A stretch of DNA of 64,000 nucleotides from an uncultured Acidobacteriota bacterium (GTDB taxonomy: Bacteria; Acidobacteriota; Thermoanaerobaculia; Gp7-AA8): assembly GCA_963822445.1 (NCBI GenBank), contig CAWGHO010000001.1, positions 672,001 through 736,000 on the forward strand. Direction: 5' to 3'. The notes under the pieces were generated by a model. That model made no database searches. It was not told where the DNA came from and saw only the letters and a program-made list of their open reading frames with translations. Of the stretch, positions 33,393 to 37,802 are shown in pieces (position 1 is the stretch's first letter; each line of letters starts with the position of its first letter). Both the position numbers and the translations under genes were made by a program.

Positions 33393-34634
33393 TCATCCCC
33401 GAGCGTTACGCGCGCGACTTCCAAGCCACAGGAACAGTGCGCCGAGGGCGCAGGCAATCGGACAGACCAGCAGCGAGAAACGCATCTGCTGCGGATCCGC
33501 TGCGACGCCGAGGGCATCGCTGATCCTGCCGATGAGCGGCGCGCCGAGACCGTACGCGGTGATGTTGATGATGGAGAAGAAGATCCCGATGCCGATCCCC
33601 CGAAGATGCGGTCCGGCGAGATCGTGAATGTCCGCCGTCGCCGGCCCGACCCACATCAACGCCAGGGCGTAGAGGACGACGTTCACCGCGAGCAGCAAGG
33701 GGATGTTGTTGATGAAGAGCATCGCCAGCCAGAGCGGCACGGACACCGCCGCGCCGATGGCCGTGAAGGACATCCGCGTGCGGAAGCGATCGGCGAAGAA
33801 TCCGGCCGAGGCCATGGCCGGAAATCCGACGAAGATCGCCAGCATGCCCGCCGCCGTGCCGACGACGGCGATCGACATCTCATGAACGCGGACGTAAAAG
33901 GTCGGACCCCAGATGCCGAGGTTGTTCGAGGCGATTCCTACGAAGGCGTAACCGGCGAACAGGAAGAGCAGCGGCTTGGAACGGAACAGCAGGCGCCAGT
34001 CGGTGTTGGCGCGCGTCGCCGGGGTCGATTCGGTGCGGCCGCGCGGCACTTCGCGCAGCATGAAGACGAGCACCGCCAGCAGCAGGCCGGGAAATCCGAG
34101 AAACCAGAACGCCGGCCGCCAGCCGTACGACTGGCCGATCCATCCGCCGAGGAAGTAGGCCAGGCCTCCGCCGACGGCGATGCCCGAGGAGTAGATCGAC
34201 TGCACCTTCGCGCGCATGCTCGTCGGAAAGTAATCGCTGAGCAGCGACAGCGCAGCGGGTCCGAGAGTGGCCTCGCCGACGCCCACCATCAACCGGCAGA
34301 GGAAGATCGTCCAGAAGCTATCGGCGAATCCGGTCAGGCCGGAGAAGAGACTCCAGATCGCCAGGCCGACGCCGATCATGTTTTTGCGCACCGTGCGGTC
34401 GGCCAGGCGCCCGAACGGGATCCCCAGCAGCGTGTAGAAGATGACGAACGACGTCGTTCCCAGCAGCGCGAGCTGCAGGTCCGAGAAGCCCATCTCCTTC
34501 TTCATCGGCGTGAAGAGGATGTAGATGAGCTGGCGGTCGAGGAAGTTGAGGACGTAGACCGCGGTGAGGACCGCCAGGGCGTACCAGGAGTAGCGGGGAG
34601 CGCGTTCGTCGACAGGCTCGGCGGTTACGGACAT
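33393..34634 (-). CDS. MFS transporter (Spinster-like)
   Basis: NFLDRQ, GRLADR, RLMVGVGEA, SLLSDYFP; about 12 TM. Confidence 0.92.
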   Translation of the reverse strand: MSVTAEPVDERAPRYSWYALAVLTAVYVLNFLDRQLIYILFTPMKKEMGFSDLQLALLGTTSFVIFYTLLGIPFGRLADRTVRKNMIGVGLAIWSLFSGLTGFADSFWTIFLCRLMVGVGEATLGPAALSLLSDYFPTSMRAKVQSIYSSGIAVGGGLAYFLGGWIGQSYGWRPAFWFLGFPGLLLAVLVFMLREVPRGRTESTPATRANTDWRLLFRSKPLLFLFAGYAFVGIASNNLGIWGPTFYVRVHEMSIAVVGTAAGMLAIFVGFPAMASAGFFADRFRTRMSFTAIGAAVSVPLWLAMLFINNIPLLLAVNVVLYALALMWVGPATADIHDLAGPHLRGIGIGIFFSIINITAYGLGAPLIGRISDALGVAADPQQMRFSLLVCPIACALGALFLWLGSRARNARG

Positions 34635-34808
34635 GGGCGGGAAGTGTAACCGACCGGCTGGCCGGTTTCGCGAAACAGCGGCGTTCGACAGGCAGCCGCC
34701 TTCCGAATTCGTTGCAGCGTAACGACCTGACCTCGGATGCCCAGATCCCGGTGCATGGGGCTGTGGAAAGCTGTGGAAATCAAAAGCAAACTGTAACAGC
34801 TAAATCCC

Positions 34809-34837
34809 TTGCATTACTGAACTTATGGATCTAGATT
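34809..34837 (+). promoter_or_regulatory. Candidate sigma70-type promoter upstream of the 79-bp array
   Basis: TTGCAT-N17-TAGATT in an AT-rich patch (about 34770-34840). Confidence 0.35.
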
Positions 34838-34850
34838 GACGCTCACCTCA

Positions 34851-35300
34851 GCACGGATGCGCTATCGGCGATGTCAACGTGAAGAGGTGGCCGAGAAGGA
34901 CCCGATAGGTCATCGAGGCAACGGTTTCGGCACGAACGCTCTATCGCGGATGTCAACGTGTCGAAGGCGGGTCGAAGTGGCGCGATAGGCCATCAGACAA
35001 CGGTTCCGGCACGAACGCTCTATCGCGGATGTCAACGTGCTGAAGCCGGTCGAAGTGGCGCGATAGGCCACCAGACAACGAGCTCCTGCACGAACGCTCT
35101 ATCGCGGATGTCAACGTGCTGAAGCTCGCCGAGAAGGCGCGATAGGTCTTCGAGGCACGGTTCGGTGCGAACGCGCTATCGCGGCGTAACACACGGAACC
35201 GGTTGCGATCGACGCGATGGGTCGTCGCAACAAAATTTAGCGCGAATGCCCCTTTGTGGCTGTCAACGCGCTGAGAACGGCCTCGGGAGACAAAGGGTCC
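34851..35300. repeat. Non-coding tandem array of six ~75-79-bp hairpin units (candidate structured ncRNA)
   Basis: Units start at 34851, 34930, 35009, 35088, 35165 and 35240. Core gcacgaacgct-ctatcgc-gga-tgtcaacgtg...gcgatag; stems covary between units. Confidence 0.8.
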
Positions 35301-35320
35301 CGGGGCCATCTTCTTTTTGT
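35279..35320 (+). terminator. Candidate intrinsic terminator closing the array
   Basis: ggcctcggga/tcccggggcc 10-bp stem (one G-U) followed by atcttcttttt. Confidence 0.45.
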
Positions 35321-35322
35321 GG

Positions 35323-35398
35323 CGTACGGCGGCCGTCCCGGCCGCTCATCGCCGGGCATCATGCCCGGCGAGACAGCGAGCGGGACGCTCGCCGTACG
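35323..35398. repeat. REP-like nested palindrome at the 3' end of the SGNH gene
   Basis: cgtacggcg...cgccgtacg outer stem with internal hairpins gcggccgtcccggccgc and cgccgggcatcatgcccggcg. Confidence 0.7.
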
Positions 35399-35400
35399 AA

Positions 35401-36168
35401 TCAGACCGGCGACAACTCCGGCCGCTTCGGTCCCCGCCCATCCCCCGACGACTTCCCCTGCGCGTGCCGCCAGATCCACGGCAGCAGATGGATGCGCAGC
35501 CACGCCAGCTCGGCGCGCGCGATGTCCATGACCGTCGGCGGCGCGCGATCCGGCAGCGGCGTGGCCCAGGAGTCATCAGTCCCCGGAAGACCGAGGTGGT
35601 ACGCGAGGGCGTCGGCGATGCGGGCGTGGCCGATCGAGTTCGCGTGCAGACGATCATCGGACCACAGCCGCGGATCGGAGGCGATCGGATGCGAGGCCAG
35701 ATCGACGACGATCGCGCCACTCCGCGCGCAGGCGCCGCGAATCGCTTCGTTCAACCGCAGCACGCGCTCCCCCATGATCTTCGCGATCGGCATCACGTCG
35801 CGAAGATCGGGAAGCGTGAAGATCATCACCGTCGCTCCCTGCTTCACGAGCGCGCTGAGCATCGCCTCGAGATCGGCGGCGAAAACGCTCGGATCGAATC
35901 GACGCCGCAACACATCGTTCGTTCCCGCGGAAACGGTCGCCAGATCGGGCCGCATCGCCAGCGCCGACGCGAGTTGCTCCTCGCGAATCTGGCGCGTCGT
36001 CCTTCCGCGAATGGCGAGGTTCGCGTAGAGCAACGATCCCTGCTGCGCGGCGATGCGCTCCGCGAGCCGGTTGGCCCAGCCGCGGTAGCCGCCCTGGCCA
36101 TCGGGATCGTCGAGGCCCTCGCTCGTGCTGTCGCCGATGGCGACGTATCGCTCGAACCGTTTCGTCAC
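35401..36168 (-). CDS. SGNH/GDSL hydrolase
   Basis: VAIGDS, NLAIRG, AGTND, DRLHAN. Confidence 0.9.
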
Positions 36169-37802
36169 GCCGGTCCCGCCAGCGCCGTCGTCACCAGCGC
36201 CTGCGCCTCGGTCTGAATCTGGCGCAGATGGTCCTCGCTGACGAAGCTCTCCGCGTAAATCTTGTAGATGTTCTCCGTGCCCGACGGCCTGGCGGCGAAC
36301 CAGCCGTTTCGCGTCGTGACCTTGAGGCCGCCGATCGCGTTTCCATCGCCGGGAGCATTCGTGAGAATGGCCTCGATCGCGTCGCCGGCCAGTTCCTTCG
36401 CCTTCACCTGCTCCGGCGCGAGCTTGCCGAGCAGCGCTTTCTGCTCCGGAGTGGCGGCGGCATCGGTCCGCGCGTAGAACGGCGCGCCGTGCTGCGCGGC
36501 GAGCTCGCGATACAACTCGCCCGGATCGCGGCCCGTTACCGCGGTCATCTCCGCGGCCAGCAGTCCCATGATGATTCCGTCCTTGTCGGTGGTCCACACG
36601 CTGCCATCGCGGCGCAGGAATGACGCCCCGGCGCTCTCTTCCCCACCGAATCCGAGCGTTCCGGCGAGCAAGCCGTCGACGAACCATTTGAAGCCGACCG
36701 GCACCTCGTACAGCTTCCGCCCCAGATGCGCCGCGACGCGATCGATGAGACTGCTGCTGACGACGGTCTTGCCGATCGCGGCGTCATCGCGCCAGTGCGG
36801 CCGGTGCGTGAACAGATAGGAGATCGCGACGGCGAGGTAGTGATTCGGATTGAGCAGCCCCGCGCTCGGCGTGACAATGCCGTGGCGATCGTTGTCCGTG
36901 TCGTTGCCGAAGGCTACGTCGAACTTGTCGCTGAGCGCGATCAGTCCCGCCATCGCGTGCGGCGACGAGCAATCCATCCGGATCTTCCCGTCCCAGTCGA
37001 GAGTCATGAAGCGGAACGTCGGATCGACAGACTCGTTCACGATCTCGATGTTCAGTCCGTACTTTTCGCGAATCACGCTCCAGTACGCGACACCCGCGCC
37101 GCCGAGCGGATCGACGCCGATGCGCAAGCCCGAGGCGCGAACAGCATCGAGATCGACCACCGATGACAGATCGCTGACATACGTAGCGATGTAATCGTGG
37201 CGATGGGTCGTCGATGCCGCGATCGCTTTGGCGAACGACACCCGCCGGATCGGCGACGAATCGTTCATCAGTCGATTGGCCGCTTCCTCGATCGATTTCG
37301 TGGCCGCGGTCTCGGAAGGCCCGCCATGCGGCGGGTTGTACTTGAACCCTCCATCCTCGGGCGGGTTGTGCGAAGGCGTGACCACGATGCCATCGGCGAG
37401 CGCCGATTTCCGTCCGCGGTTGTGCGTGAGGATCGCGTGCGAGACGACCGGCGTCGGCGTGTAGCCGCGGTTGCGGTCGATCATCACCTCGACTTCATTC
37501 GCCGCGAGCACCTCCATCGCCGACGCGAACGCCGGTTCGGACAAGGCATGCGTGTCGATGCCGAGGAACAGCGGGCCGTCGATGTTCTGCGCGCGGCGGT
37601 AGTCGCAGATGGCCTGCGTCGTCGCCAGGATGTGCAATTCGTTGAACGCAACCTTCAGCGACGAGCCGCGATGTCCCGACGTGCCGAACGCAACGCGCTG
37701 GTCACGTACGGAAGGATCGGGACGCTCGGTGTAGTACGTGGCGATGAGGCGCGGCACGTTCACGAGCATGTCCTCGCTCGGCCGCGATCCGGGTCTGGTC
37801 AT
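36165..37802 (-). CDS. pgm: Phosphoglucomutase (alpha-D-glucose phosphate-specific)
   Basis: [33 protein letters not shown]. Confidence 0.96.

Follow-up and report, generated by a model that had tools for sequence, protein, structure and literature searches.

A probable modular RNA gene of tandem kissing-loop pseudoknots in a family of uncultured Acidobacteriota

What is encoded by a row of six related units of about 79 nt standing between two protein genes of an uncultured Acidobacteriota bacterium? The Acidobacteriota are among the commonest soil bacteria, and to our knowledge their RNA biology has been little studied. The window analyzed here is a stretch of 64,000 nt from a genome of 6.0 Mb (64.4% GC; 94.7% complete), and the array lies in a 766-bp gap between an MFS transporter gene (33393 to 34634, - strand) and a GDSL lipase gene (35401 to 36687, - strand), both identified with Pfam. 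Sequence reading and a repeat search place the starts of the six tandem units at 34851, 34930, 35009, 35088, 35165, and 35240, with spacings of 79, 79, 79, 77, and 75 nt, and Tandem Repeats Finder reports a period of 79 with 3.6 copies and a score of 371. The number of units and the periods are those given in an earlier note made from the letters alone, and reading, Tandem Repeats Finder, and a separate repeat search agree on them. The stems that it listed are likewise all present, namely, ctatcgg/ccgatag in unit 1, ctatcgc/gcgatag in units 2 to 4, ctatcgc/gcgatgg in unit 5, and ccctttgt/acaaaggg in unit 6, as is its loop motif TGTCAACG, which occurs in five of the six units and is absent from unit 5. 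We consider positions 34845 to 35318 (+ strand) to be a gene for a structured modular RNA of ~470 nt, with a probability of roughly 0.9.

A coding array was rejected, since the periods of 79, 77, and 75 do not keep to multiples of 3 and the module number differs between genomes; on the same grounds, the open reading frames over the array (for example, one of 118 aa at 34953 to 35309 on the - strand) are read as chance frames of a 64% GC genome. A mobile element was also rejected, there being no array match in plasmid and phage sequences and one copy in the genome. BLAST finds that single copy in all 6.0 Mb; a match to a common dispersed repeat would have told against the reading offered in the earlier note. 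The covariance-model search proposed there recovers from this genome only the six units (E values of 1.6e-12 to 1.1e-4) and one extra weak match (E = 0.1) that lacks any module feature and resembles coding sequence, and its matches in relatives fall in two families.

Comparison of the relatives' sequences gives good support to a module that would fold as a kissing-loop pseudoknot joining two adjacent hairpins. Three helices were identified in alignment A2, which holds 109 internal modules from 28 loci aligned with MAFFT without structure input, with loci L038 and L034 left out. P1 (positions 1 to 5 with 28 to 32, GCACG/CGUGC) is paired in 93.7% of cells and has compensatory changes in all five pairs. 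P2 (positions 12 to 18 with the GCGAUAG block) is paired in 99.3% of cells, with compensatory changes in five of seven pairs and the other two invariant, which bears out the earlier observation that the stem changes while its pairing is kept. P3, whose arms lie on either side of GCGAUAG, is paired in 88.2% of cells, with compensatory changes in six of six pairs. Over all helices, 94.1% of cells are paired, compared with 83.0% in shuffles, and compensatory changes occur in 16 of 18 pairs; because the modules are paralogues as well as orthologues, such cell counts exaggerate how many events were independent, but several pairs nonetheless show three or four pair types. The covariation score of 0.427 (0.212 for shuffles) was reached by none of 500 shuffles, slid controls were paired at 20 to 44%, and RNAalifold alone recovers P1 and P3. 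A model-based alignment of 139 modules from 36 loci gives 95.5% pairing for P1 and 98.5% for P2, and it lengthens P3 to 11 pairs interrupted by an internal loop, which is often G-A, at 77.4% pairing and with compensatory changes in 11 of 11 pairs. Pairing of the module tail with the spacer that follows P1, which would make a fourth helix, was seen in 64.5% of cells with few compensatory changes and is not claimed.

Of the two P2 strands, the 5' one falls within the loop of P1, and the 3' one makes up the 7-nt apical loop of P3. The stem of 7 to 8 bp, which the earlier note took for a hairpin with a loop of ~33 nt, is therefore a long-range loop-loop helix between hairpins P1 and P3. Its 11-nt "leader" exists as a sequence but is not an unpaired leader, being used by P1. 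All seven P2 pairs can form in cis in 101 of 109 modules, and pairing with the next or the previous module is complete in 42 of 81 and 41 of 81 cases, respectively; P2 would therefore form inside one module, cis pairing being far above pairing with neighbors. We infer that P1, P2, and P3 form simultaneously. Fully paired 7-nt kissing loops are known in ColE1 RNA I/II. The G-U pairs are frequent in A2 (GU 15 times in P1, UG 27 and 14 times in P2, and GU 19 times in P3), and since they would be C-A on the other strand, they identify the + strand as the one that folds.

All modules of the window are on the + strand. Module 1 (34851 to 34929; covariance model E = 2.3e-8) has ctatcgg/ccgatag as its P2, and its P3 region, CCGAGAAGGAC..GTCATCGAGGC, is common to the first modules of most same-genus genomes. 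It is followed by module 2 (34930 to 35008; E = 2.3e-11) and by module 3 (35009 to 35087; E = 1.6e-12), which serves as the reference, with P1 at 35009 to 35013 with 35036 to 35040, P2 at 35020 to 35026 with 35060 to 35066, the P3 apex at 35055 to 35059 with 35067 to 35071, and the unpaired conserved GGAUGUCAACG at 35027 to 35037. Module 4 (35088 to 35164; E = 1.1e-11) precedes the diverged module 5 (35165 to 35239; E = 3.2e-5), which has GGCGUAACAC in place of the loop motif, a G-U pair in P2, and, at its 3' end, the AU-rich linker ACAAAAUUUA, corresponding to the AACAUUG-like linkers ahead of the last module in relatives. The terminal module (35240 to 35318), recognized by sequence reading and from the terminal modules of relatives, has P1 at 35240 to 35244 with 35267 to 35271, P2 at 35250 to 35257 with 35290 to 35297, and, as a terminator stem, P3 at 35279 to 35288 with 35298 to 35307, with a T-run at 35308 to 35318 next.

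The last module of the relatives is a distinct type as well, with a second hairpin that has a GC stem of ~10 bp and a T-run; the terminal module of locus L014 has a short T-run only. In 44 aligned terminal modules, P1, P2, and P3 are paired in 100%, 89.4%, and 96.1% of cells, respectively, with compensatory changes in 18 of 24 pairs and a score that none of 500 shuffles reaches; the extraction skipped 16 loci, mostly those in which the last profile match is not the terminal module, and also L014 and most short-form loci (see below). The changed stem that the earlier note saw in unit 6 is real, but the unit is not merely a diverged copy: it is a conserved terminal module whose P3 with the T-run is the predicted intrinsic terminator.

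A matching promoter is predicted upstream. The -35 hexamer TTGCAT (34809 to 34814) and the -10 hexamer TAGATT (34832 to 34837), both on the + strand, occupy conserved positions in the relatives. Among 60 distinct upstream regions, counted only for loci with at least 95 nt upstream, 49 have TTGNNN, a spacer of exactly 17, and TANNNT, ending 12 to 14 nt before module 1. The -10 variants among these 49 include TACGTT (15), TAGATT (14), and TACATT (9), and TGTAAC is found in 38 of the 60 regions. In the window, an A-rich block at 34760 to 34805 (+ strand) contains GCTGTGGAAA twice at 34760 to 34779 and TGTAACA at 34792 to 34798, and relatives have tGGAAAAC..GAAAAATGTAACAGCGAAAA at the matching upstream position. 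Judged by the UP consensus, this block probably serves the RNA promoter as an UP-like element or as a site for an activator. Transcription would be expected to start at about 34843 to 34847. A strict consensus scan of 34600 to 35450 returned no promoter-like and no terminator-like site. The promoter was missed because it has too few consensus matches, and the terminator presumably because its loop is 9 nt and the scan is limited to loops of 3 to 8 nt. Since the array lies between a positionally conserved promoter (TTGCAT-17-TAGATT) and a terminator inside the last module, it is read as one + strand RNA.

The sequence of the array is present in soil RNA libraries. Eighteen soil metatranscriptome runs, all from 2023 and possibly from one campaign, contain 0.44 to 0.54 of the sampled array words. 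In the four runs that were mapped, 552 to 1,511 Logan contigs per run lie on 34810 to 35319, contigs of a kind that carries no information on transcript start, end, strand, or level. Near-identical contigs extend over the strain-specific module 5, for example, one at 35163 to 35269 with one differing letter. The flanks at 34300 to 34809 and 35320 to 35800 have no contig cover in these four runs, which were picked by array words; the relatives share only the conserved modules. The earlier note had made its reading depend on transcription, and its multimeric structured RNA on the + strand is upheld by the three covarying helices, the strand-specific G-U pairs, and the promoter and terminator, together with the contigs over the array.

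The same evidence bears on action at the DNA level, in which the units would be either single-stranded DNA hairpins or repeats bound by a protein in the way of iterons. As such action might have it, the units are evenly repeated and the - strand carries TTGACA repeatedly, but the GTGCCG that lies 17 nt past TTGACA on that strand is not read as a -10 element. Moreover, the three helices, including the pseudoknot, keep their pairing through strand-specific G-U intermediates, promoter and terminator are conserved, and RNA-library contigs cover the array, which makes DNA-level action hardly credible. The single-stranded DNA hairpin array offered by the earlier note finds no support on these points, to which the G-U strand bias belongs.

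The array is a family trait. BLAST of the region against 60 relatives finds it in 28 of 34 same-genus genomes (72 to 83% identity) and in one of two other genomes of the family, with weak partial matches in two more distant genomes; this tally includes one unpublished genome (G002). A six-unit profile finds three to eight co-oriented units in 28 of the 29 relatives' loci, and L038, the most distant locus, has one clear unit followed, by eye, by a terminal module. When 151 genomes of the class were searched with the covariance model, it found matches in 28 of the 35 from the family (27 of 34 without the unpublished genome G166), in at least 14 genera, and in the one genome of a sister family of the order, but in none of the 114 genomes in 15 other families of the class. 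In a phylum-wide sample, the two array families gave three of four and one of one (four of five together), and none of the 145 genomes outside these families matched. "Orphan," the word used in the earlier note, therefore holds within its own genome (one copy) but not across the family (28 of 34 genomes of the genus and 28 of 35 of the family). Some genomes have two or three separate loci, and the module number ranges from two to eight among relatives, with a conserved module throughout. The pattern looks like vertical inheritance across the family. Two loci from unpublished genomes (L034 and L180) are left out of alignments A2, A4, and A5 and of the downstream-strand, P2 cis/trans, terminal-module, and promoter counts.

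No neighbor gene is universal to the array loci. The GDSL gene is near the array in two other loci and the MFS gene in none of the loci searched, and the largest shared flank cluster is a small lipoprotein-like open reading frame, found in seven loci and without a Pfam match. Further window neighbors are pirin and phosphoglucomutase genes. The gene downstream of the array is on either strand across loci and is, in the window, the convergent GDSL lipase gene. The lack of a universal neighbor and the variable strand of the downstream gene fit an RNA that acts in trans. The earlier note saw no adjacent effector gene, which agrees with the MFS and GDSL flanks in the window and with the lack of an adjoining toxin gene. 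In addition, there is a short sister form with two or three modules and a terminal module of the same type. One genus has this form alone, and in several others it occurs as a second locus. Upstream of the short form, a gene for an S1-domain protein lies on the opposite strand at 14 of 15 loci; none was seen within 3 kb at L187. A His_Phos_1 gene lies 20 to 30 nt past the short-form terminator on the same strand in 14 of the 15, and the contig of L196 ends before that point. In at least seven genera, the S1 gene and the short form stand back-to-back.

Several residues outside the helices are nearly invariant. R-GAUGUCAACG is unpaired and hardly changes across modules, as are A7, G9, C10, G20, and UGUCAACG. 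Position 8 (Y) covaries with position 19 (R), with CG in 43, UA in 39, and CA in 19, which suggests a tertiary pair in the predicted fold. The linkers are single-stranded and partly conserved, with CAACGGUUYC between internal modules and an AU-rich AACAUUG-like sequence before the last one. In another reading, the modules would be aptamers for a small molecule or ion and the array a riboswitch-like sensor or buffer, the short form acting in cis on the downstream histidine-phosphatase gene. The compact pseudoknot with near-invariant A7, G9, C10, G20, and UGUCAACG in its junction strands resembles many aptamers, the Y8-R19 covariation suggests a tertiary pair, and the short form lies 20 to 30 nt before a His_Phos_1 gene on the same strand. 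However, the next gene in the window is convergent and the downstream gene is on either strand across loci, the 10-bp GC terminator stem has no evident anti-terminator, no Rfam riboswitch model matches, and no free-standing RNA with five to eight aptamers in a row is known to us. Aptamers are therefore an unlikely reading of the array.

The array belongs to no RNA family cataloged in Rfam 15, as the scan suggested in the earlier note reveals. None of the 4,227 models has a gathering-score match in the whole 64-kb window, and none matches inside 34851 to 35273 at E values up to 10, barring the chance-level mir-9228 (35155 to 35239, - strand, E = 3.8); a second chance-level match, ctRNA_p42d (35274 to 35320, + strand, E = 3.5), lies at the array edge. 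The other Rfam matches (E = 0.12 to 8.5) are to a flanking palindrome or to genes, and matches to CRISPR-DR models (E = 0.45 to 3) lie outside the array. That the array is not a CRISPR locus, as the note held, is confirmed by whole 79-nt units placed head to tail, by the lack of unique spacers, and by the lack of cas genes among the neighbors; its statement that the array does not fit attC was upheld too. ARAGORN found no tRNA or tmRNA feature in the array. 6S RNA is a single long hairpin with a central bubble; it was rejected, the array architecture being different and a separate 6S gene being present at C3:1262063-1262261 (64.6 bits). A literature search, which covered article texts, turned up no account of the RNA, and the DNA 9- and 10-mers matched primers only.

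Among the nearest known systems are the CsrB/RsmX/Y/Z RNAs, which are free-standing, strongly expressed, trans-acting RNAs with an intrinsic terminator and a variable number of binding modules, the modules of the CsrB/RsmZ type being short hairpins that have GGA in the loop and bind CsrA/RsmA. Like them, the array would be a free-standing RNA with variable repeat modules, and its last module includes the terminator hairpin. In contrast, its module is a two-hairpin kissing-loop pseudoknot of ~79 nt, not a short GGA hairpin. The only recurrent GGA lies within RGAUGU (consensus CGCAGATG), in which about half of the modules have A as R, and the CsrA model (PF02599) has no match in this 94.7%-complete genome, while the controls Escherichia coli, Bacillus subtilis, and Thermotoga maritima were matched. 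A CsrA sponge was therefore rejected.

A varying number of conserved modules, a single promoter and terminator, the lack of a conserved neighbor, and an exposed invariant face together suggest a multivalent trans-acting RNA. That it serves as a decoy or scaffold for a putative partner is our tentative reading, held at somewhat less than even odds. The gene would be transcribed from its own promoter into an RNA of ~470 nt that ends at the intrinsic terminator, a chain of five internal modules and one terminal module, ~79 nt each, that fold independently. In each module, P1 (5 bp) would close a loop of ~22 nt, P3 would have up to 11 bp, an internal loop, and a 7-nt apical loop, and the P1 and P3 loops would pair via P2 (7 to 8 bp) into the kissing-loop pseudoknot. 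This fold would leave R-GAUGUCAACG and the CAACGG-like linker exposed, and many copies of one binding site would be displayed, by which a protein or another RNA could be sequestered or scaffolded. The putative partner would recognize the pseudoknot together with the GAUGUCAACG face, as in sponges of the CsrB/RsmZ type. We infer both the transcript ends and the whole sponge mechanism. A tunable number of near-identical pseudoknot modules points to regulation by sequestration. Knowing the partner would reveal a new RNA-protein regulatory pair, no CsrA gene having been found, or a new aptamer class, and a module of ~79 nt is small enough for direct structural and binding study. What is new here is the module fold of a repeated modular noncoding RNA, a large RNA that has a well-supported fold, is found in RNA libraries from soil, is kept throughout a whole family, and matches no cataloged RNA family.

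Alternatively, the transcript may be a precursor from which cuts in the linkers release small RNAs of ~79 nt, the exposed GAUGUCAACG loop being a seed for mRNAs. Single-stranded linkers with partial conservation, a conserved unpaired 10-mer that could act as a seed, and an Hfq gene in the genome speak for it. Against this, one promoter and one terminator serve the whole array, and the complement of the 10-mer is not enriched in the genome: an exact search of this genome, which is a crude test, found nine occurrences of GATGTCAACG outside the array on both strands, compared with ~7 expected. Processing into small RNAs is thus possible but doubtful; for a protein partner of the decoy, the lack of GATGTCAACG enrichment argues neither way.

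Tandem pseudoknots also occur in type III antitoxins. According to PMC3401426, these loci have a promoter, tandem pseudoknot repeats of 31 to 46 nt (some ~60 nt) that are cut by the toxin, a terminator, and a toxin gene directly after, and they are patchy and often on mobile elements. The array shares with ToxI, CptI, and TenpI, as described there, direct repeats with a pseudoknot in each, one promoter, and a terminator after. An antitoxin-like pseudoknot array against an endoribonuclease toxin encoded elsewhere would have the same layout of promoter, repeats, and terminator. However, compared with the repeats described there, the units of the array are longer, at 75 to 83 nt, the pseudoknot is of a loop-loop type rather than the compact hairpin type of ToxI, and no toxin gene follows, the next gene being the convergent GDSL lipase gene; this is also where the antitoxin-like array among the suggestions of the earlier note fails. 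Moreover, neighbors vary between genomes, inheritance is vertical within one family and family-wide, and there are no plasmid or phage copies, which makes this reading very improbable. The ToxN model PF13958 is unmatched in the 94.7%-complete genome, as it is in all 14 control genomes.

Other RNAs are built with repeated pseudoknots. tmRNA has the tandem pseudoknots PK2 to PK4 in one abundant RNA, and the array is like it in having several tandem pseudoknots in one RNA and, in the short form, an adjoining S1-domain gene; it differs in having no tRNA-like or tag-coding part (ARAGORN) and in a pseudoknot that joins the loops of two hairpins. STAXI and other repeated pseudoknot motifs of Rfam are small and can recur in a row; the array is likewise a small pseudoknot motif repeated in tandem and is set apart from STAXI only by the lack of an Rfam match, the presence of STAXI among the 4,227 models being assumed.

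In a more specific version of the decoy reading, the modules would act as pseudoknot decoys that bind an S1-domain RNA-binding protein with high affinity, the candidate being a four-domain S1 paralogue of 472 aa in the window's genome (C1:1088573-1089991). We give this version little credence; it is drawn from the gene adjacency in the short form and the published affinity of S1 for pseudoknots and from nothing else. The introduction of PMC7708055 reports a nanomolar affinity of S1 for H-type pseudoknots as well as its binding to tmRNA pseudoknots, and GGA and ACA recur in the loops of S1-selected pseudoknots according to the discussion of PMC1702504. If this version were true, the RNA would titrate S1-type proteins and hence act on translation initiation or RNA turnover, a CsrB-like sequestration that uses a new pseudoknot module and has the translation machinery as its target. 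In broader terms, uncultured soil Acidobacteriota would then possess an abundant modular RNA of a new class, together with a new partner for it. In the window's genome, no copy of the RNA lies beside the S1 paralogue, and a longer S1 protein is encoded by an open reading frame of 635 aa (C3:1636985-1638889), which is taken to be the canonical six-domain S1. Orthologues of the paralogue, at 42 to 55% identity, are present in several families without the RNA (unpublished genomes in this tally, G042, G136, and G166), and phylogenetic co-occurrence therefore lends the S1 version no support.

Public contigs were also scanned with a shortened and too loose pattern of the module. Most of the 80 loci listed are chance matches, and 13 Poribacteria loci among the matches listed were rejected as dockerin-like coding repeats (DVNGDG). 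Real modules were identified in seven of the loci listed. The lineage is Acidobacteriota, class Thermoanaerobaculia, judged by the names of the module-bearing metagenome-assembled genomes, which are "Thermoanaerobaculia bacterium," "Acidobacteriota bacterium," "Acidobacteria bacterium," and "Candidatus Gilichinskyi gelida."

Within the modules of the array RNA, positions 8 (pyrimidine) and 19 (purine) covary, and the combinations CG, UA, and CA were found 43, 39, and 19 times, respectively, among 109 modules. In the window, one such pair of positions lies at 35016 and 35027. The nucleotides that separate the two positions pair in P2, which joins the loops of the P1 and P3 hairpins. As judged from the sequences, the covarying positions may form a tertiary pair that closes the P2 strand or, alternatively, may belong to a small alternative hairpin.

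Upstream of the array RNA, about 30 nt 5′ of the −35 hexamer, the window contains two tandem copies of GCTGTGGAAA (34760-34779), whereas relatives have one tGGAAAAC box at the corresponding place, and the pair may represent a duplicated regulatory site. Downstream, an imperfect palindrome with 24-nt arms that are 83% complementary occupies positions 35323-35398, directly past the RNA terminator and before the end of the convergent GDSL lipase gene. Since BLAST revealed a minimum of 20 copies of this palindrome, some complete and some partial, spread over all three contigs of the genome, it is a dispersed REP-like element that lies outside the array RNA and is separate from it. The weak chance matches to the Rfam families MIR1151, sul1, and SorX fall on the palindrome.

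A shorter sister RNA of 2 to 3 modules, with the same terminal module as the array RNA, was observed in relatives (loci L185-L193, L195-L197, L200, L202, and L203, all outside the window). Its neighborhood is conserved, with a divergent gene for an S1-domain protein upstream and a His_Phos_1 gene starting 20 to 30 nt past the terminator. Four S1 domains lie within the 433 to 465 amino acids retrieved for this protein. The orthologue in the window's own genome, an S1 paralogue of 472 amino acids (contig C1, 1088573-1089991), has no such RNA adjoining it.

Loci from Poribacteria MAGs matched the loose search pattern, mostly spanning 94 nt (n = 13 among the matches listed; L052, L057, L064, L066, L073, L075, L081, L084, L095, L098, L105, L107, and L118). 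They were rejected as array RNAs, being coding repeats with a dockerin-like peptide motif, DVNGDGxVNIxDL, in the five loci translated, and the covariance model matched 0 of the 13.

A conserved small ORF of approximately 125 amino acids adjoins the array in seven loci, upstream in L018, L027, L028, L029, L032, and L033 and downstream in L010. Its product, which had no Pfam match, has a signal-peptide-like start and a lipobox-like motif, LLVACG.
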